DNA of 64,000 nt from Aureispira anguillae (lineage in GTDB: Bacteria; Bacteroidota; Bacteroidia; Chitinophagales; Saprospiraceae). Made by a program: the position numbers and the translations under genes. The DNA lies in NCBI RefSeq assembly GCF_026000115.1, contig NZ_AP026867.1, positions 2,969,716 through 3,033,715 of the forward strand, in the 5' to 3' direction. The notes beneath the pieces are model-generated. The model was not told the DNA's origin. It did not search any database and worked only from the letters and a program-made list of their open reading frames with translations. This document shows positions 47,982 through 57,981 of this stretch, piece after piece (position 1 is the stretch's first letter; each line of letters begins with the position of its first letter).

Positions 47982-48578
47982 TTATTGGTGCCGCTGTTCT
48001 AATACCGCCAGCACCTCATCCAAACTATAATCTTTAGCTGCCAAAAGAACCAAATAGTGATACAGCAAATCGGCAGCTTCTCCCAAAAACAATTTCTTAT
48101 TATCGTCTTTGGCTTCAATGATTAGCTCAACTGCTTCCTCTCCAACTTTCTGAGCCACCTTATTTATTCCCTTTTCCAACAATTGCGCCGTATAAGATTC
48201 GGAGTGCGCATTATTTTTTCGGTCATTAATAATGGTTGCTAAATAATTTAAATCAAATTTAGAATTGTTTGCTGTACCAAAGCAAGTTCCTGTCCCCTTA
48301 TGGCAAGTATTTCCTTTGGGGTTTACCCTTATTAACAACGCATCATGATCACAATCCTTTTGCCATTTGACCAATTCTAAATAATTGCCAGAAGTTTCGC
48401 CTTTTACCCACAAACGCTGCTTAGATCGGCTATAAAATGTAACCAAGCCAGTCTCTAAGGTTTGTGCAAGCGCCTCTTCGTTCATATACCCCAACATTAA
48501 CACATTTTGGGTTCTTTCATCTTGTATAATAGCAGGAACTAACCCTCCCATTTTTTTATAATCTAGTGCTATACTCAT
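47982..48578 (-). CDS. hisIE: Bifunctional phosphoribosyl-AMP cyclohydrolase / phosphoribosyl-ATP pyrophosphatase
   Basis: HisI motifs (…[18 protein letters not shown]…) followed by the HisE helical domain. Last gene of the his operon. Confidence 0.9.
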
Positions 48579-49330
48579 AATCTTACTAATATATTATTCT
48601 TATCTAAATAGTTTTTTAAAGCTGGGATAGCAATTTCTTTGAAATGAAAAACGCTTGCCGCCAAAGCTGCGTCGGCTTGTCCCAATTCAAAAACATCCTT
48701 AAAATGAGATTTTTTTCCTGCTCCTCCAGATGCAATGATTGGGATTGACAATTGCTTGGACATTAGGGCTAATATTGAATTCGCAAAACCATCCTTGGTA
48801 CCATCATGGTCCATTGATGTAAACAAAATCTCTCCAGCCCCTAGTTCCGCTGCCTTCTTTGCCCATTCTAGCAATCTCCATTCACTTTTTATACGCCCAC
48901 CACTTGTATAAACCATCCACTCACCATTTTCCAACTTTGCATCTATCGCCACCACTACACACTGACTTCCAAATTTACTAGCCAGTTCTCTTATCAATTG
49001 AGGTTGGCGTACCGCAGCTGAATTGATGGCAATTTTATCGGCTCCTGCCCTTAAGAGCCTAGCGACATCTTCTACCGTAGAAATTCCCCCTCCTACTGTA
49101 AAAGGAATTGAAAGGCATCGAGCAATTTTTTCAACCAGCTCAATCCATGTTTTTCGCTTTTCATGACTAGCAGTAATATCCAAAAACACCAGTTCGTCTG
49201 CCCCCATCTTAGTATATAATTGAGCCAATTCAATAGGGTCTCCCGCATCTTTGAGCCCAACAAAATTCACCCCCTTTACTGTTCTCCCCTCTTTTATATC
49301 CAAGCAAGGAATAATTCGTTTGGTTAACAT
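48575..49330 (-). CDS. hisF: Imidazole glycerol phosphate synthase cyclase subunit
   Basis: [20 protein letters not shown]… (beta/alpha)8 HisF signature. Confidence 0.9.
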
Positions 49331-50052
49331 GATACAATGAATTTTTCAACTTCTTTTAATTTAATTTTTCCTTCATAGAATGCTTTGCCAATAACAACTC
49401 CATGACAACCTATTTCATCCAATTTTTTTATCTCATCAATAGAAGATACCCCACCACTAGCCATCAACTTTAAGTTGGGGAATTCGTTCAAAATAGATTT
49501 ATAAAGTGCTATAGAAGCTCCTTGTAAGAGGCCATCTTTGGCAATATCGGTGCAAATACAAGATTCAATCCCTCGCTCTAAATAATTCTCCAAGAAAGGA
49601 AACAATTCAATTTCACTGACCTCTTTCCAACCGTTAACAGCAATTTGCAAACCTTTGACATCTGCTCCTAGTATAATTTTAGAACTGCCATACGTTGCGA
49701 TCCATTCATAAACTAAGGGGGCATTGGCTACAGCGATACTCCCAGCCGTAACTTGGTTTGCCCCTGAGTTAAATGCTATTTCAAGATCTTTAATCGATTT
49801 TACTCCTCCTCCAAAATCAATCCTTAAATTGGTTCCTTGCGCAATGCTTTCCAACACGTCATAATTAACAATATACTTAGCTTTGGCTCCATCCAAATCT
49901 ACCAAATGCAACTGCTCTAAGCCAGCATCTTCAAACGATTGAGCCACCTCTAGCGGTTTGCTACTATAAATTTTCTTCTGTGTATAATTTCCCTGCGTTA
50001 GACGAACGCATTGCCCGTCTATAATGTCAATTGCTGGTATTATCTTGATCAT
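49324..50052 (-). CDS. hisA: ProFAR isomerase
   Basis: [21 protein letters not shown]… HisA signature. Overlaps hisF by 7 nt. Confidence 0.9.
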
Positions 50053-50063
50053 TTTTTACTGAT

Positions 50064-50651
50064 TTATAAGGCTAAGAAGTTTTTTAAAATTTGCATTCCA
50101 ATCTGATTCGATTTTTCAGGGTGAAATTGTGTTGCATAAAAGTTATCCTTTTGTAATGCTGCACTAAAATTCCCTCCATAAGAACAAGTAGCAATGGTAT
50201 AAGCTCCCAATTCTACATAATAACTATGAACAAAGTAAGCGTAACTATCCATTGGTATCCCTGCTAATAAAGGTACCGAATTGCAGGTAAGCGTATTCCA
50301 TCCTATATGGGGAACCTTTAAATTGGGATGGGGAATGAATCGCTTGACCCTTGCAGGAAAAATATTCAATCCCTCTACATTGCCTTCTTCTGAAAAAGCG
50401 CACAGCAGTTGCATTCCTAAACAAATTCCCAATACGGGTTGTACAAGATTTTTTATGGCAAGATCCAAACCTTCTTTTTTTAGATAAGTCATGGCAGAGC
50501 GAGCCTCGCCCACTCCTGGAAAAATTACCTTATCGGCAGCAGCCAATAACGTTGGGTCTTTGGTTAACACTGCTGATACGCCTAGTCGCTCTAGCGCAAA
50601 CTGCACTGAACGGGTGTTCCCTGCCTTGTAATCTATAATTGCTATTTTCAT
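50064..50651 (-). CDS. hisH: Imidazole glycerol phosphate synthase glutamine amidotransferase subunit
   Basis: Class I GATase with catalytic Cys in GICLGMQLL and an HPEKS motif. Confidence 0.9.
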   Translation of the reverse strand: MKIAIIDYKAGNTRSVQFALERLGVSAVLTKDPTLLAAADKVIFPGVGEARSAMTYLKKEGLDLAIKNLVQPVLGICLGMQLLCAFSEEGNVEGLNIFPARVKRFIPHPNLKVPHIGWNTLTCNSVPLLAGIPMDSYAYFVHSYYVELGAYTIATCSYGGNFSAALQKDNFYATQFHPEKSNQIGMQILKNFLAL

Positions 50652-50704
50652 ATTAGCTCCTTTTTATTTGGTGCTTTGACAACTCACTCATCAAAACATA
50701 ACAT

Positions 50705-51838
50705 TTATAACAGTCCTTTAGTAGAAGGCAATAATTGATGCTTAGGGTCTCGTTTGATTGCCTGTTTGATACTCTTAGCCCAAGCTTTAAAAATCGCTTC
50801 AATCTTATGATGTTCATTTTTGCCCTTGGCTTGAATATTTAAATTGCACAAAGCAGCATCTGAAAAAGACTTAAAAAAATGAAAGAACATTTCTGTTGGC
50901 ATTTTTCCAATCATTTCACGTTTAAATTCAGCCTCCCAAACCATCCAATTTCGCCCCCCAAAATCCAAGGCAACTTGTGCCAAACAATCGTCCATTGGCA
51001 AACAAAACCCATAGCGCTCTATTCCTTTTTTGTTCCCTAGGGCTTGACGAAAGGCAGCCCCCAAAGCAATAGCTGTATCTTCAATGGTATGGTGCTCATC
51101 TACCTCCAAATCTCCTTGGGTCAACACCTCCAAATCAATACCTGAATGGCGGGCTAACTGATCTAGCATATGGTCAAAAAAAGGAATTCCTGTATTAATA
51201 TTTGCCTTGGCTGTTCCATCCAAATTCAATCGAATTTTAATCTTTGTCTCTTTGGTATTTCGCTCGATTTCAGTAATTCTAGGCGGCAACTTTAACAACT
51301 GATAAATAGCTGCCCAATCCTTAGTCGCTAGAGCTATCGTTGACATCAATTCTTTGGTTTGCATTGCACAGGCTTCCTGTTTTGGATCAGAATTGATCCA
51401 AATCCCTTGCGCCCCTAAATTTTTTGCCAATTCCATATCCGTAAGTCGATCGCCAATTACATAAGAATTAGCCAGATCATAATCCCCCTCTATGTATTTT
51501 GTTAATAAGCCCGTCCTTGGCTTTCGAGTAGGTGCATTTTCCTCAGGAAAAGAACGATCTATATATACTTCATCAAACGCAACTCCCTCCTGTTCAAACG
51601 CCTGTATAATTTTATGGTGAGCAGGCCAAAACGTTTCTTCAGGAAAAGCACTCGTTCCTAATCCATCCTGATTGGTAATCATAACCAATTCATACTCTAG
51701 TTCTTGAGCTATTTTTGATAAATATTGAAATACCCTAGGATAATAAACCAACTTCTCCAAACTATCCAGTTGATAATCAATAGGAGGTTCTATAACCAAG
51801 GTTCCATCTCGATCTAAAAACAATACTTTTTTAGGCAT
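50705..51838 (-). CDS. hisB: Bifunctional histidinol-phosphatase / imidazoleglycerol-phosphate dehydratase
   Basis: N-terminal HAD motif [10 protein letters not shown]-terminal IGPD motifs (DxHH..E). Start taken at MPKKVLFLD. Confidence 0.9.
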
Positions 51839-52889
51839 TTTTATTTTTTTTATAGTTTGATAGATTAAAAAGCAATTGCTTATTCTCAGCAGCCGAACCA
51901 ATGGTTATTCGCAAGCAATTGTCACATAAAACCACTGCGTTTCTATTCCGCACAACAATCCCCTTTTCCACTAAATAGCGATAAAGTGCATCCGCTTGTT
52001 TTACTTTTACCAATAAAAAATTTGCAGCAGAAGGGTATACATGCACCACAAAAGGCAACTGGATTAATGCATTTTTTAACACTGTTCGTTCTGATAGAAT
52101 GGTTCGAATGGTTTGATACAAATCGTTAGCATTCTGTAGGCGTTCTAAGGCAAACGATTGGGTCAATTGATTAATATTGTAAGGAGGTTTTACCTTGTTA
52201 AAAAGAGCAACAATTGTAGGGCTGGCGATTGCCATTCCCAAGCGAATCCCCGCCATTCCCCAAGCCTTAGAAAACGTTTGCAGAATCACTAGATTAGGGT
52301 AAGTATCTAGCCATTTTAGGCAGCTTTCCTGAGCAGAAAAATGAATATAGGCTTCATCCACTACCACAATTCCATCAAATTCTTTGATCAATTGCTCGAT
52401 TTTAACCAATGAAATGTCATTGCCTGTAGGATTATTGGGACTACAAATAAACAAAATCTTGGTTTGTTCGTTCTGTGCTGCCAAAATTGCCTCTACATCA
52501 GGTTGAAAATTTTCTTGTAATGGAATTGTTATATTTTTCACCCGATTAATAGTTGCTGAAACCTCATACATGCCATAAGTAGGGGGCAACGTAATAATAG
52601 CATCCTGTCCTGATATGCAAAAAATACGCAATAACAAATCAATAGCTTCATCGCTACCATTCCCTAAAAAAATTTGTGCTGCATCAAGTTTTAAATAAGT
52701 CGCTATAGCCTTTTTTAAGTTCCCTTGTAAGGGATCTGGATAGCGATTGTAAGGGCTTGAAAGCGCATTTTCATTGGCATCCAAAAAAATTCTTGCGCTT
52801 CCCTTAAATTCTGATCGGGCAGAAGAATAAGCTTGTAGGCTAATTATGTGCGGATTAACGAGCGCTTCTATTGTTTTTGTTCTATTCAT
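51831..52889 (-). CDS. hisC: Histidinol-phosphate aminotransferase
   Basis: Class II aminotransferase with PLP-Lys region (…[14 protein letters not shown]…). Overlaps hisB by 8 nt. Confidence 0.85.
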
Positions 52890-54165
52890 CGTTCATACTT
52901 TTTAGTCGAATACTGATAGCATTTTTGTGTGCTTCTAAGGCTTCTGCTGCTGCCATTGTTTCTACCACCCAGCCAATATTTTTTAATCCTCTTTTGGTTG
53001 CTTTTTGGAACGTAATTTTCTTTACAAAAGAATCTAAAGACAGCCCACTATAGTTACAGGCAAAACCATTTGTGGGTAAGGTATGATTGGTTCCTGATGC
53101 ATAGTCTCCTAAAGATTCTGGTGTAAAATTTCCTAAAAATACAGAGCCTGCATTGATTACTTGATCGGCAACTTTTTCCGCATTCTTGATATTTAAAATC
53201 AAGTGTTCTGGTGCATATTCATTAATGAATTGAACAATTGTTTGCTCGTCTTTTAAGACAATTGCTCGACTATTATTTAAAGCAATTTGAGCCATATCCT
53301 TTCGAGGCAAACGAGCAATTTGTTGCTTAATCGCTGCTTGAACGTTTTCGACAACAAGCGAACTGCTACTGACCAAAATCACTTGGCTATCCGTTCCATG
53401 TTCTGCCTGAGATAATAAATCGGCTGCTACAAATGCTGGATTTGCACACTCATCTGCCCAAACCAATAGTTCAGAAGGCCCAGCGGGCATATCAATAGCA
53501 AGCCCTTCTTTAAGAATCAACTGCTTAGCACAGGTGATATATTGATTTCCTGGACCAAATATTTTATATACTTTGGGGATACACGCTGTTCCGTATGCCA
53601 TTGCTCCTATCGCTTGCACCCCACCAACTTTAAAGATTTTTGTGCAGCCCACCAAACTCGCTGCGTACAAAATAGCTGGGTGTATCTGCCCCTTTTGATT
53701 AGGAGGCGAACAAAGCACAATCTCTCTACAACCTGCTAATTTTGCAGGAATGCCCAACATCAAAACAGTAGAAAACAAGGGTGCGGTTCCAGCAGGGATA
53801 TATAAGCCTACCCGATCAATCCCCACTGATTTTCGCCAACAAGTAATTCCATCCATGGTTTCCACGTACTGGACGGCTTCTTTCTGGCTCTTATGAAATA
53901 CTTCTATGTTGTTTTTTGCTTGTTGAATGGCTCTTTTTAAGGGGCTAGAAACCGCTTCTATAGCGGCTTGAATCTCAGCTTTTGACACGCTAAAATCATC
54001 CAACTGAACCCGATCAAATTTAGAAGTGTATCTTCTTACAGCAACATCTCCATCCTGCTGAATATCCTTTAAAATTGATTGTACCACTGGTTCCAAGTCC
54101 TCTGTTCCAAGCCTTGAACGTTGGAGTAAGGTCGTCCATTCTTCTGGATTGATAAATGTTTTCAT
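52882..54165 (-). CDS. hisD: Histidinol dehydrogenase
   Basis: HisD signature regions (…AGPSE…, …EHL…). 427 aa. Overlaps hisC by 8 nt. Confidence 0.9.
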   Translation of the reverse strand: MKTFINPEEWTTLLQRSRLGTEDLEPVVQSILKDIQQDGDVAVRRYTSKFDRVQLDDFSVSKAEIQAAIEAVSSPLKRAIQQAKNNIEVFHKSQKEAVQYVETMDGITCWRKSVGIDRVGLYIPAGTAPLFSTVLMLGIPAKLAGCREIVLCSPPNQKGQIHPAILYAASLVGCTKIFKVGGVQAIGAMAYGTACIPKVYKIFGPGNQYITCAKQLILKEGLAIDMPAGPSELLVWADECANPAFVAADLLSQAEHGTDSQVILVSSSSLVVENVQAAIKQQIARLPRKDMAQIALNNSRAIVLKDEQTIVQFINEYAPEHLILNIKNAEKVADQVINAGSVFLGNFTPESLGDYASGTNHTLPTNGFACNYSGLSLDSFVKKITFQKATKRGLKNIGWVVETMAAAEALEAHKNAISIRLKSMNDE

Positions 54166-54185
54166 AATAAATTTATTGGTTTGTT

Positions 54186-55049
54186 TTATACAATCATTTT
54201 TTCAATTGGGATGACTAAAATCCCCTCTGCCCCAGCCATTTTTAGAGCATCTATACGCTCCCAAAATGCCGTTTCCTGAACAACAGAATGCAAAGAGCTC
54301 CACCCTTTGTCCTTCAAAGGCAAAATGCTAGGACTTTTCATGCCTGGCAACAAGGCGCAAATTTCATCCAACTTATGATTAGGCGCATTTAACAAAATGT
54401 ATTTGTTTTTGGCAGCAGCCTGTTTAGAACGAATTCTGAAAATCAGTTTTTCCAAAATCTGTTGCTTGATAGCGGATAATTTAGGATTGCCAATCAATAC
54501 AGCCTGAGATTTTAATAAGACTTCCACCTCCTTTAATCCATTGCTCAATAAAGTAGATCCAGAACTTACTAAATCGCAAATCCCCGCTGCTAAACCAATA
54601 CTAGGTGCTATTTCTACGGAACCACTAATGGCATGAATTTCAGCACTAATTCCATGCTTAGTCAGATACTCTTTTAAAATGTTAGAATAAGTTGTTGCAA
54701 TCTTTTTTCCATTCCAATAGTCTAATCCTGTGTAAGTTTCATTTTTAGGAATAGCCAAAGACAACCGACATTGAGCAAATCCTAGTGGTAAAAGAGTATC
54801 GACCCTTGCTTGTTCTTCTAGCAAAACATTCTCTCCTAAGATTCCAACATCTGCAACCCCATCTTCAACATACTGAGGAATATCGTCGTCTCTCAAAAAA
54901 TAAATTTCTAAAGGGAAATTGGTTGCTGGCGACAATAATTTTCGCTTGCCATTTCTCAATTCGATACCGCAATTGCTTAATAATTGCATTGATTTTTCCG
55001 TTAGTCTACCCGATTTTTGGATAGCAATACGAAGTCTCTCGTTCTTCAT
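54186..55049 (-). CDS. hisG: ATP phosphoribosyltransferase (long form)
   Basis: HisG catalytic domain plus C-terminal regulatory domain. 287 aa. Confidence 0.9.
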   Translation of the reverse strand: MKNERLRIAIQKSGRLTEKSMQLLSNCGIELRNGKRKLLSPATNFPLEIYFLRDDDIPQYVEDGVADVGILGENVLLEEQARVDTLLPLGFAQCRLSLAIPKNETYTGLDYWNGKKIATTYSNILKEYLTKHGISAEIHAISGSVEIAPSIGLAAGICDLVSSGSTLLSNGLKEVEVLLKSQAVLIGNPKLSAIKQQILEKLIFRIRSKQAAAKNKYILLNAPNHKLDEICALLPGMKSPSILPLKDKGWSSLHSVVQETAFWERIDALKMAGAEGILVIPIEKMIV

Positions 55050-55106
55050 AACCCTGTTTGATATTAGTAAAAAAAATAGATGTGCCTGAAAAGTATGGAG
55101 TAGGTC

Positions 55107-55138
55107 AAAAAAAAAGGCTTATCACCAAGTGATAAGCC
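55107..55138 (-). terminator. Attenuator terminator of the his operon leader
   Basis: On the minus strand: perfect 10-bp stem GGCTTATCAC-TTGG-GTGATAAGCC followed by a T9 run. Lies between the leader ORF and the hisG start codon. Confidence 0.7.
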
Positions 55139-55170
55139 TTTTTGTATTTTAAATTCTACTTATTTATTCG

Positions 55171-55284
55171 CTAGGAATGGAAATTATGAGGAGTAGAATG
55201 ATGAGCACATACATTAGCTTCACTTGACTGACCATGCAGTAAATGATGAAAATGATGATGTGTATGTGCGTTACTCAATAACAT
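55171..55284 (-). promoter_or_regulatory. hisL: his operon leader peptide ORF (37 codons, 11 His)
   Basis: Minus-strand ORF translated by hand: MLLSNAHTHHHFHHLLHGQSSEANVCAHHSTPHNFHS*. Includes the run H-T-H-H-H-F-H-H. It is shorter than the 60-aa cutoff of the ORF track. Confidence 0.7.
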
Positions 55285-55425
55285 AATTCAATAATAGAAG
55301 GATTGTTTTGATTTGTTAATACAAACCTAGGAGTTTTTATTTAAATAGTCCAAATTTTTGTTGCTATTTTTTTTATTTTTTTATCAAAACAAGAAAAGTT
55401 CACTCAAAAAAAAGCTAAAAATCAA

Positions 55426-57981
55426 CTACTTAAAAGATATTTTTCTTTTTCGTTCGTGCAAAGCTTTTAAGAATTGTTCCAGTTCTATTTCATCTTGGAT
55501 GTAGACCTGTCGTGCTTTAGAACCTTCATTCGGTCCCACAATTCCAGTATTTTCTAGCTGATCCATAATACGTCCTGCACGATTATAGCCTAGCTTTAAG
55601 CGACGTTGAATCATAGAAGTAGAACCTTGTTGATTCATCACTACCAATCGAGCAGCGTCATCAAAATGTTCGTCCAAATCATGCAAAACTTGATTTAGCT
55701 TTTGCTCGCTATCATTTCCACTGCCTCCGTCTTCGCCATAAGCAGGCAACAAAAAGGGCTCTGGATAACCAGGCTGAGATGCAATATGATTAATTACTCG
55801 ATCAACCTCTGGTGTATCAACAAAAGCACATTGAATTCGAATCAAGTTACCGCCTGAAGCCAACAACATATCCCCTCTACCAATTAATTGTTCAGCACCA
55901 CCACCATCTAAAATCGTACGAGAGTCAATTTTAGAAGTTACTTTAAAGGCTAAACGTGCAGGGAAGTTTGCTTTGATAATACCAGTAATAATATTTACCG
56001 ATGGACGCTGTGTAGCAATAATTAAATGAATTCCTACCGCACGTGCCAACTGTGCTAGACGACCAATCGGAAGCTCAACTTCTTTTCCCGCCGTCATAAT
56101 TAAATCGGCAAACTCATCAATCACCAACACAATAAAAGGCATAAAACGATGCCCCTTTTCAGGGTTTAATCGGCGAGCAACAAACTTTTTGTTGTATTCA
56201 TTGATATTACGAACGGACGCTTTTTTCAGCAAATTATAACGTTCATCCATTTCTACCGTCAAAGAATACAAGGTCTGAACTACCTTGGTTACATCGGTTA
56301 CAATCGCCTCTTCTTCATCTGGCAAATAGCCCAAATAATGCGCAGAGATACGGTTATACAAAGAAAGTTCTACTTTTTTGGGATCAATCAAGATCAACTT
56401 TAACTGAGAAGGGTGCTTCTTGTAAAGCAAACTCATAATAACTGTATTAATCCCTACTGACTTTCCTTGCCCCGTTGCTCCAGCAATCAGCAAATGCGGC
56501 ATCTTAGCCAAGTCAGCAATAAAGACCTCATCCGAAATTGTTTTCCCCAATGCAATTGGAAGATCCATTTTAGCTTCTTTAAACTTAGGAGAAGCCAACA
56601 CTTCTTTGAGCGATACAATTTGTTTGTTTCTATTCGGCACCTCAATACCAATGGTTCCTTTTCCTGGAATTGGAGCAATAATACGAATTCCTAAAGCGGC
56701 TAAACTCAAGGCAATATCGTCCTCCAAGCTCTTAATCTTAGAGATACGCACCCCTGGAGCTGGAATGATTTCGTATAAGGTTACCGTAGGACCAATGGTT
56801 GCTTTTATCTTAACAATCTCAATCTTATAATTGAGTAAAGTTTCTATAATTTGATCCTTGTTTGACTCCAGCTCTGCACGGTCAATAACAGGTTTTTGAT
56901 CGTCATAACTTTCTAACAAATCAATAACAGGATTCTCATACTTGGGTAGATCTAAAGTTGGGTCATACGGTTCAAAATGATCTTTATTTTCTTCAGCAAT
57001 CCCAATCTCAACTTGCTCTCCCTCTTTGCTAATTTCCATTGTTAAATCAGCATCTTCTTTCTCTGCCTCAGCTTTTTCTTTAGCTGCCTTTTCTAGATCT
57101 AAAGCCAATTGATTTTGGGTCAATTTTTTGACCTTATCTTCTAGCTCCTCCTTCGTAGATTGCTCAATAACCTTGGGCACTTCTAAAATTGTTTCCCTTT
57201 TATCTTCTGCTGATTGAGCAGGTGTTGGGCGATCAACAGCCTCTTCTGTATCCGTATCTCTAACATGCTCTGGTTTAAGCACATTATTCTTAGGTTTTAA
57301 AACGGTAACGGTCTTTGTTTCGGGTGCAGCAGGGAGTGGTTCGGGTTCTGGTGTCAATCGGAAAAGACTTCGAAAAGTTGCAGTAATGTTACTGATAGAA
57401 AATGCTGCTTTAATTTCATTTACGCTTAAGCCATCTTTAAAATTTGGATTCTTGTTCCAAATAACAAAACCTAAAAAGGCAAAGAGCAAGATTGCTATAA
57501 TTCCAACAGAGCCAACCAAACCATCTAAGAGGCTAATCAAGACTCCTCCAAAAGCTCCACCCCAAGGAAATTCATATCCTTGAAAAATAAATCCCAACAA
57601 AAAACTCGTCCAAAGCATGGTTAACAAAGAACGTTTATAAACAGGAATCAATTTCTTAAGAGGAGTTTCTACGATAAGACTCATGCCTGTTGTAAACAAC
57701 AAAAACACCAGAATAAAGGACGAAAAGCCAAATCCATAATAAAAGAATTGATGCGATAAAACGGCTCCTAAACGCCCTAACCAATTATCCATATCGTGCG
57801 GAGAAAGCAATACTGACCAGTTCGCTTTGTCCATATCTTCTTTCCATGTAAACAGATACGACGAAAATGCAATGAAAAGATATAAAGTAAAAAATAAGCA
57901 AAACAGCCCCACTAGTTTAGGAAAACGATCGTCTTGTACTCCGCCCTTAATGGAAACTTGTTTTTTCTTCTTTTTAGCCAT
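55426..57981 (-). CDS. ftsK: DNA translocase FtsK
   Basis: N-terminal TM segments and a Pro/Glu/Lys-rich linker. C-terminal motor domain with Walker A (GATGQGKS), and a C-terminal winged-helix gamma domain. Confidence 0.9.
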   Translation of the reverse strand: MAKKKKKQVSIKGGVQDDRFPKLVGLFCLFFTLYLFIAFSSYLFTWKEDMDKANWSVLLSPHDMDNWLGRLGAVLSHQFFYYGFGFSSFILVFLLFTTGMSLIVETPLKKLIPVYKRSLLTMLWTSFLLGFIFQGYEFPWGGAFGGVLISLLDGLVGSVGIIAILLFAFLGFVIWNKNPNFKDGLSVNEIKAAFSISNITATFRSLFRLTPEPEPLPAAPETKTVTVLKPKNNVLKPEHVRDTDTEEAVDRPTPAQSAEDKRETILEVPKVIEQSTKEELEDKVKKLTQNQLALDLEKAAKEKAEAEKEDADLTMEISKEGEQVEIGIAEENKDHFEPYDPTLDLPKYENPVIDLLESYDDQKPVIDRAELESNKDQIIETLLNYKIEIVKIKATIGPTVTLYEIIPAPGVRISKIKSLEDDIALSLAALGIRIIAPIPGKGTIGIEVPNRNKQIVSLKEVLASPKFKEAKMDLPIALGKTISDEVFIADLAKMPHLLIAGATGQGKSVGINTVIMSLLYKKHPSQLKLILIDPKKVELSLYNRISAHYLGYLPDEEEAIVTDVTKVVQTLYSLTVEMDERYNLLKKASVRNINEYNKKFVARRLNPEKGHRFMPFIVLVIDEFADLIMTAGKEVELPIGRLAQLARAVGIHLIIATQRPSVNIITGIIKANFPARLAFKVTSKIDSRTILDGGGAEQLIGRGDMLLASGGNLIRIQCAFVDTPEVDRVINHIASQPGYPEPFLLPAYGEDGGSGNDSEQKLNQVLHDLDEHFDDAARLVVMNQQGSTSMIQRRLKLGYNRAGRIMDQLENTGIVGPNEGSKARQVYIQDEIELEQFLKALHERKRKISFK

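Follow-up and report, generated by a model that had tools for sequence, protein, structure and literature searches.

The stretch of Aureispira anguillae DNA analysed here, a window of 64 kb, carries on its minus strand the his operon hisGDCBHAF-IE of this member of the Bacteroidota (class Saprospiria); the encoded HisG shows 100% identity to the A. anguillae protein. Upstream of hisG, which starts at 55049, lies ftsK (57981-55426, also on the minus strand), and the two genes are separated by an intergenic region of 376 nucleotides (nt). This region contains a short histidine-rich open reading frame (ORF), an intrinsic terminator and, downstream of the first His codons, a segment complementary to both. 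On the basis of the folding models and the conservation described below, we consider it very probable that these parts form a ribosome-mediated (leader-peptide) transcription attenuator controlling the operon. The coordinates of all features are collected in the table.

The initial annotation had described a 37-codon minus-strand ORF upstream of hisG with 11 His codons, including the run HTHHHFHH, and re-reading of positions 55284-55171 returned exactly this ORF; every one of the 11 His codons is CAT (CAU in the RNA), and HTHHHFHH occupies codons 7-14. Given the 1.4% His of the neighbouring genes, at least 11 His in 37 codons would be expected with a probability of about 2e-12. At least five His per eight codons are found at a single site in the six frames of the window (shuffle mean 0.17), and the ORF is the only one among the short intergenic ORFs of the window to show a strong enrichment of a single amino acid. 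Its 37 codons place it below the usual ORF cut-off of 60 amino acids (aa), and the peptide gave no match to Pfam or NCBIfam at E values up to 10.

A perfect stem of 10 base pairs (bp) with a T9 tract had likewise been noted about 30 nt past the ORF and roughly 55 nt ahead of the hisG ATG. Both distances were borne out, the stem GGCTTATCAC/GTGATAAGCC being seen 32 nt after the stop codon and the T9 tract ending 57 nt before the ATG. The 10 bp (5' strand 55138-55129, loop TTG) are the core of the hairpin, which flanking A5 and U5 lengthen to 15 bp; the leader stop is 30-32 nt from the terminator. With a folding energy of -18.7 kcal/mol (z = -6.3), the hairpin was matched in stability by none of 200 dinucleotide shuffles. 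We also considered GGCTTATCAC as a repeated element and dropped this idea, since within the window it occurs at the two terminator arms only.

Between the first His cluster (region 1) and the terminator arms (regions 3 and 4), the segment CAGUCAAGUGA pairs with the His codons in a covarying protector and is complementary to the terminator 5' arm and loop. The protector consists of the stems P0 and P1, which form one long hairpin (55269-55205) with a minimum free energy (MFE) of -15.8 kcal/mol, and its 5' strand carries the first His cluster. In the alternative pairing, the antiterminator, CAAGUGA of region 2 binds its exact complement UCACUUG, followed by AGCU with GGCU across a 2-nt bulge (GGCU-ua-UCACUUG). 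The same AAGUGA thus pairs with UCAUUU of the His-Leu codons in P1, with one G.U pair, and with UCACUU in the antiterminator, where all pairs are Watson-Crick; region 3 therefore mimics region 1, as the classic attenuation model requires. In the MFE structure of the free leader RNA, with region 1 present, P0/P1 and a further hairpin, P3, are formed and the terminator 5' arm is unpaired, while the MFE structure without region 1 contains the antiterminator closing a loop that includes P3 (-17.0 kcal/mol). Folding of the leader thus revealed mutually exclusive antiterminator and terminator helices that involve the His codons, with P1 and the 5' arm competing for region 2. P3 appears in the MFE structures of the free and the stalled-ribosome RNA alike, and we regard it as a tentative hairpin with moderate support. 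A second antiterminator, AUAAGU/GCUUAU just before the terminator, was rejected as weak (6 bp); by eye it is not conserved in the related loci L081 and L097.

Features of the his leader and operon of A. anguillae (positions in the 64-kb window)
Feature	Positions	Strand	Sequence or remark
Candidate Bacteroidota-type promoter	55322..55354	minus	TTTG (55354-55351), 21 nt, TAGGTTTG (55329-55322); exact motif match
Leader ORF	55171..55284	minus	37 codons + stop, MLLSNAHTHHHFHHLLHGQSSEANVCAHHSTPHNFHS; ATG at 55284, TAG at 55173-55171
P0, 5' strand	55261..55269	minus	GCACAUACA; outer stem of protector hairpin, codons 6-8
First His cluster, region 1	55243..55266	minus	codons 7-14, HTHHHFHH; putative sensing codons
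P1, 5' strand	55237..55246	minus	UCAUUUACUG; codons His13-His14-Leu15-Leu16, partner is region 2
P1, 3' strand	55230-55220	minus	CAGUcAAGUGA; 5' part of region 2
Region 2	55216..55230	minus	CAGUCAAGUGAAGCU; shared by P1 and antiterminator
Antiterminator part of region 2	55227-55216	minus	UCAAGUGAAGCU; complementary to terminator 5' arm and loop
P0, 3' strand	55205..55213	minus	UGUAUGUGC; partner of 55269-55261
Second His cluster	55192..55203	minus	codons 28-29 (HH), then H33 and H36; overlaps P3 5' strand
P3 (tentative)	55199-55193 / 55159-55153	minus	AUUCUAC / GUAGAAU; closes enlarged antiterminator loop
Intrinsic terminator	55107..55143	minus	15-bp hairpin + T9
Terminator 5' arm, region 3	55143-55129	minus	AAAAAGGCUUAUCAC
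Terminator loop	55128-55126	minus	UUG
Terminator 3' arm, region 4	55125-55111	minus	GUGAUAAGCCUUUUU
T9 tract	55115-55107	minus	57 nt before hisG ATG at 55049
Regulated (predicted) his operon hisGDCBHAF-IE	47982..55049	minus	complete set of genes

The effect of a ribosome on this competition was modelled by masking 30 nt around it (A site -15 to +14), folding the transcript without the terminator 3' arm and reading out the probability that the terminator 5' arm pairs upstream. Without a ribosome this probability was 0.10; it rose to 0.70-0.78 when codons 4-15 occupied the A site, and was about 0.10 for codons 16-28 and 0.12 for the stop codon. The same stall profile was obtained in 10 of 11 relatives of the Aureispira clade, the exception being locus L178. 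A brief second rise of the antiterminator, with the A site on codons 29-30, was seen among the modelled clade sequences in that of the window only.

Twelve distinct loci of this clade were collected, mostly by exact-protein look-ups, from HisG homologues with 68-86% identity; one of them, L097, came from a collection scan and was the only close relative among the matches listed there. The gene upstream differs among the clade loci, being ftsK, a divergently oriented DJ-1/PfpI gene, a nitroreductase gene or others, while a promoter motif, the terminator GGCTTATCAC...GTG(A/G)TAAGCC and hisG are common to all of them. As leader and terminator stay with hisG despite the changing neighbours, the element belongs to hisG and not to ftsK. 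A long leader ORF of 33-39 codons is present in all clade loci (HisG of the relatives 72-86% identical) except L180, whose leader has 23 aa and whose stem differs slightly, GGCTTATC...GATAAGCC. Every member of the clade has the first His cluster. The second one survives in the window, L081-85, L097 and L094/L177 alone, and has decayed in L096, L090, L092, L088, L179, L086 and L178.

Covariation was analysed with 13 clade sequences (alignment A2). For the structure of the terminated state, 90.2% of the cells are paired, compared with 37-51% when the partners are slid by one to three columns, and 15 pairs show changes on both sides, compared with 7.6 in shuffles (none of 500 reached 15) and 0-5 in the slid controls. 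The slid control is the safer comparison, because the shuffle control ignores relatedness, and it turned out as clear as the latter. Double changes concern six of nine pairs in P0, four of ten in P1 (92% of cells paired; for example ACUG/CAGU, GCUG/CAGU and GUUG/CAAC) and three of seven in P3 (77.5% paired). No change is seen in the terminator 5' arm GGCUUAUCAC across the 13 sequences, and the 3' arm carries an A-to-G change in four, a difference that fits a 5' arm with two pairing partners and hence a doubly constrained region 3. CAAGUGA itself is present in 11 of the 13 sequences, with L178 out of register in the alignment and L086 reading CAAGUGG. The first antiterminator pair, between region 2 and a base of the terminator loop, varies as U.G, U-A and C-G, and where it is U-A (L096), the uppermost pair of the terminator itself is disrupted. 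In L178 and L086, whose loops differ (AAUU and AACA), region 2 is re-registered (GUGAUAAG and GUGGUAG-GCU, respectively) such that 8-10 bp with the arm are kept. In the aligned sequences, these changes of the loop-base pair, the invariant 5' arm and the re-registered region 2 of L178 and L086 point to selection on the antiterminator. The best duplex to the 5' arm begins 14-18 nt past the last His codon of the first cluster in all 11 clade sequences with GGCTTATCAC that were tested, and 20 nt past it in L180.

Beyond the clade, we surveyed 160 distinct, deduplicated Bacteroidota hisG upstream regions, mostly with 60-67% identity, among the matches listed in two collection scans. An ATG-started ORF with at least four His in eight codons is present in 129 of them (about 80%), compared with none of the 160 reverse complements and 1 of 800 shuffles. 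The comparison with related leaders thus revealed conservation of the His-rich ORF both in the Aureispira clade and in most of these regions. A hairpin with a T-run follows in 108 of the 129 His-ORF leaders. The His-rich ORF is lacking in 31 of the 160 regions, and by the criteria used no hairpin with T-run was found in 21 of the 129; examples of regions without the ORF or the hairpin are L014 (MNYTVRQHHHHHHHCA, an ORF without hairpin and T-run), L020, L034, L057, L066, L073 and L076. Some of these regions may be detection failures and others may have a different control.

The geometry of the phylum leaders is narrow: the median leader has 18 aa, with 55 nt from the end of the His run to the terminator (interquartile range, IQR, 52-60), and stop codon and terminator are separated by a median of 32 nt. 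The leader of the window is a long form with 37 aa, in which 102 nt separate the first cluster from the terminator (95th percentile), while the end of its second cluster, at 57 nt, matches the spacing typical of the phylum. In the long form, regions 2 and 3 are about 50 nt further apart, the added sequence comprising the rest of the ORF, the 3' strand of P0, and P3, and as the ORF lengthens along with it, the distance from its stop codon to the terminator remains about 30 nt. Tracking of the terminator by the stop codon is established only as a contrast between the clade and the rest (outside the clade, r = 0.19, p = 0.06). In the ribosome-position model, a stall at the His codons raised antiterminator pairing above that of the free RNA in 96 of 108 phylum leaders, above that with the ribosome at the stop codon in 103 and above that with shuffled spacers in 86 (Wilcoxon p < 1e-12 in each case).

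Across orders, the terminator stems of the phylum fall into few types, namely AAGGCTTACC...GGTAAGCCTT, AACCCGTCTGA...TCAGACGGGTT, AAGGTTTGCA...TGCAAACCTT and the Aureispira type AAGGCTTATCAC (examples are L100, L102 and L001 as against L110, L121 and L159), and each type has its own leader tail, such as LLPNG or HTCSQAR. The small number of stem types with matched leader tails speaks for an old, vertically inherited element in which region 3 is constrained by region 2, and this sequence pattern suggests such an origin for the his leader. Among the sampled Bacteroidota loci (L001-L180), CAU makes up 83% of the His codons in leaders (564 of 677) and 54% in the adjacent hisG genes, and its fraction is higher in the leader than in the corresponding hisG at 93 of 128 loci. 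This preference could be a tuning of sensitivity via a wobble-read codon, or a pairing constraint (UCAUUU).

Direct support exists for the individual parts and how they are conserved, for the covarying protector pairs, for region 2 as the complement of either partner and for a thermodynamic switch, while the start of transcription, the translation of the ORF, the kinetic competition and the dependence on histidine in vivo are inferred. Transcription would begin at the Bacteroidota-type promoter and reach the leader ATG after about 30 nt. With charged tRNA-His plentiful, a ribosome would translate through the 37-codon leader and either sit on region 2 itself or let it return to its pairing with the His-codon segment in P0/P1. 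The terminator 5' arm would then be free, the 15-bp hairpin with its U9 would form, and RNA polymerase would come to a halt 57 nt short of hisG. Under a shortage of tRNA-His, the ribosome would stall on codons 7-14 (HTHHHFHH) and mask region 1. Region 2, whose start is some 15 nt beyond the last His codon in this cluster, would stay accessible and capture the 5' arm together with the loop (CAAGUGA-AGCU with GGCU-ua-UCACUUG) while the 3' arm is still to be synthesised; this would block the terminator, and the his operon would be transcribed. The textbook ribosome-mediated attenuation proposed in the initial annotation is thus supported by the exclusive helices, the stall-dependent switch in the model and the conservation of the ORF.

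Several points weigh against this interpretation. In L178 the modelled antiterminator forms even without a ribosome, which is why this locus departs from the common stall profile. When the full-length leader is folded at equilibrium, the terminator has a probability of 0.997 at every ribosome position; this value was uninformative as a read-out, truncated transcripts being used in its place, and it implies that antitermination, as modelled, would have to be kinetic. The footprint limits of -15 and +14 are assumed, and how sharply the profile rises and falls depends on this choice. The antiterminator helix displays little covariation, because its core is invariant, and its duplex energy to the arm beats dinucleotide shuffles only moderately (2-101 of 300 shuffles being as good), and poorly in L090, L092 and L180. 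The promoter motif, with 8 matches in the window and 6.5 expected, is by itself unenriched. To our knowledge, the coupling of transcription and translation is unstudied in Bacteroidota, and the case for an attenuator in A. anguillae comes from sequence comparison and folding models.

Other explanations of the same parts were weighed against this background. The hairpin might be a terminator of ftsK, or a bidirectional intergenic terminator, with the hisG promoter located past it and the His-rich ORF arising by chance or remaining untranslated. Its flanking A5 and T9 indeed give it a bidirectional look, and as no other terminator-like hairpin was found on the minus strand between the ftsK stop (55426) and the leader (55285-55425), read-through from ftsK would continue into the leader and either stop at the attenuator terminator or come under its control. 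Relatives with a different or divergent upstream gene nevertheless keep leader and terminator at hisG, the stretch from ftsK to the leader contains a conserved promoter motif, and the 57 nt past the terminator, where a hisG promoter was sought and rejected, contain no exact motif and are not conserved; a chance His ORF is opposed by the probability given above and by its recurrence in 129 of the 160 phylum loci. We therefore regard this explanation as almost certainly wrong. Hardly more credible is that the 37-aa product acts as a functional His-rich micropeptide, for example in metal binding, instead of as a sensor. The ORF is longer than typical leaders and its peptide is fairly conserved in the clade, but it matches no protein family, only the His run and its spacing are kept across the phylum, the residues conserved in the clade fall where the RNA is paired (P0, P1 and region 2), and the C-terminal half is free to decay, the second His cluster with it.

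RNA structures alone cannot tell what flips the switch, and the same switch might be set by an RNA-binding protein, by uncharged tRNA-His in the manner of a T-box, or by histidine in the manner of a riboswitch. The unusual sequence conservation of the terminator 5' arm would also fit a binding factor, but it is accounted for by the two pairing partners; moreover, neither a T-box nor another Rfam match was obtained, even at E values up to 10 in the region or at the gathering score in the window, and the phylum keeps an ATG-started His-run ORF at a fixed distance from the terminator while other sequence diverges. Such a factor is very unlikely in our view. We give a similarly low probability to stalling that acts via Rho-dependent termination, hisG translation or messenger RNA stability, the hairpin being a constitutive partial terminator. 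For this speak the equilibrium folding, which always favours the terminator, and the 21 of 129 phylum leaders in which no hairpin with T-run was found, so that another read-out is possible in some lineages. On the other hand, the intrinsic terminator is strong and canonical, its 5' arm and loop find their complement in region 2, at a conserved 14-18 nt past the His run, and the pairing switches with the modelled ribosome position in clade and phylum.

A variant of the attenuator concerns the origin of the long form. The Aureispira leader may be an attenuator in turnover, or a two-tier sensor, although we consider this rather improbable. In that case, the second cluster (codons 28-36), with its 57 nt to the terminator, could, judged by its position, be the ancestral sensor, the upstream cluster together with P0/P1 and P3 would have been added later and have taken over the sensing, and the ORF would be kept long to hold the stop about 30 nt from the terminator. 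Given the modelled rise at codons 29-30 in the window sequence, both His clusters could contribute in A. anguillae. We also considered the second cluster as a conserved second sensor and rejected this, as the model peak appears in the window only and the cluster is lost in seven relatives. L097, L081 and L094 keep the HH of the second cluster, yet have no peak at codons 29-30, and the restriction of this peak to one sequence indicates that the second cluster is probably not a conserved sensor.

Leader-peptide attenuation of hisG is best compared with Flavobacterium psychrophilum, for which a 129-nt 5' transcript with a 19-aa His leader has been mapped upstream of hisG; its read-through and co-expression peak in minimal-nutrient media, and its authors noted no Rfam hit (Guerin et al. 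2021, ISME Commun, PMC9723704). Both leaders come from the same phylum and precede the same head gene, and they share a His-run ORF (MSLNQLHHHHFHICSQAKC in F. psychrophilum), region 2 in the tail of the ORF, the stop codon and its distance to the terminator (about 31 nt in F. psychrophilum, 30-32 nt in Aureispira). In the same model, a stall raises the pairing of the F. psychrophilum leader from 0.38 to about 0.8. The Aureispira leader differs in its length (37 codons versus 19), in the distance of the sensing His cluster to the terminator (102 nt versus 55 nt), a departure from the compact geometry, and in an antiterminator loop that is about 50 nt larger, with P3 and a second, poorly conserved His cluster. 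The outer protector stem P0 is an addition of Aureispira, and the terminator stems differ as well (GGCUUAUCAC versus CCCGUUUGA in F. psychrophilum). While the F. psychrophilum element is known from transcript data, that of Aureispira is described here by sequence and models.

The enterobacterial hisL (RF00514, Pfam His_leader) follows the same logic, with a His-codon ORF and exclusive protector, antiterminator and terminator helices before hisG, but has no detectable similarity in sequence or structure to the Aureispira leader. It comprises 16 codons with seven consecutive His, whereas the Aureispira leader has 37 codons with an interrupted His run, a Bacteroidota-type promoter and no Shine-Dalgarno sequence. 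Neither the RF00514 model nor the T-box matched at E values up to 10 within 54900-55500, and a scan of both strands of the window at Rfam gathering scores found no family. A permissive Rfam scan returned sub-threshold, terminator-driven matches only, to STnc370 (33 bits, compared with a threshold of 54) and to the Bacteroid-trp leader (21.7-22.9 bits, compared with 49). Bacteroid-trp (RF01692; Weinberg et al. 2010, PMC2864571) is a family of leader-peptide attenuators of Bacteroidota amino-acid operons, and the 3' end of its model, AAAAAGGCUUGUC, resembles the start of the Aureispira terminator, AAAAAGGCUUAUC; as its scores stayed below gathering, it carries Trp rather than His codons and it aligns to the terminator start only, membership in this family was rejected. 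The Bacteroidota his leader is absent from Rfam, Pfam and NCBIfam as a curated family.

The initial annotation had presented the his attenuator as sitting in a Bacteroidota-like setting. The setting is correct, but it is less unusual than was implied, because His leaders prevail in the phylum and were described there before. Vitreschak et al. reportedly listed, in 2004, candidate his and other leader-peptide attenuators, some of them in Bacteroidetes/Chlorobi, and we know of no Aureispira genome from that time. In the account of Naville and Gautheret (2010), leader-peptide systems were until then known only in Proteobacteria and Actinobacteria, to which Bacilli were added.

The candidate promoter TTTG-N21-TAGGTTTG ends 37 nt before the leader ATG, and judged by this motif, transcription would start near 55315 and leave a 5' untranslated region (UTR) of about 30 nt. 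The motif stands at the same place in the relatives of the Aureispira clade, and an exact motif ending 0-80 nt upstream of the leader ATG is found in 67 of the 129 phylum leaders. There, TTTG-N17-23-TAnnTTTG ends a median of 10 nt (IQR 7-18) before the ATG, examples being L010 (2339-2373) and L044 (2339-2370). If transcription starts about 6 nt past the motif, as mapped for hisG of F. psychrophilum, this short gap would leave 5' UTRs of a few nt in many leaders, and the sensing ribosome would then load on nearly leaderless RNA.

Downstream of the attenuator, the genes follow in the order hisG (55049-54186), hisD, hisC, hisB (with a HAD phosphatase and an IGPD part), hisH, hisA, hisF and hisIE, and the operon yields Pfam matches to HisG, Histidinol_dh, Aminotran_1_2, IGPD, GATase, His_biosynth (twice), and PRA-CH with PRA-PH. 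The hisB ORF (50705-51901, minus) is listed with a TTG start that makes it overlap the end of hisC by 71 nt, and its Pfam matches begin at residue 25; to judge from the sequence, the true start is probably a codon downstream of the listed TTG.

The Aureispira his leader is a real and ordinary element, a lineage-specific long form of a kind that is widespread in the phylum, and it leaves the understanding of how attenuation works unchanged. What it offers is a regulatory annotation for the his operon of A. anguillae and its relatives, in which the leader ORF sits under gene-calling cut-offs. The alignment and the helices could seed a family for the phylum-wide his leaders with their strikingly fixed geometry, and these leaders are a test case for the coupling of ribosome and RNA polymerase in a phylum without Shine-Dalgarno-led initiation.

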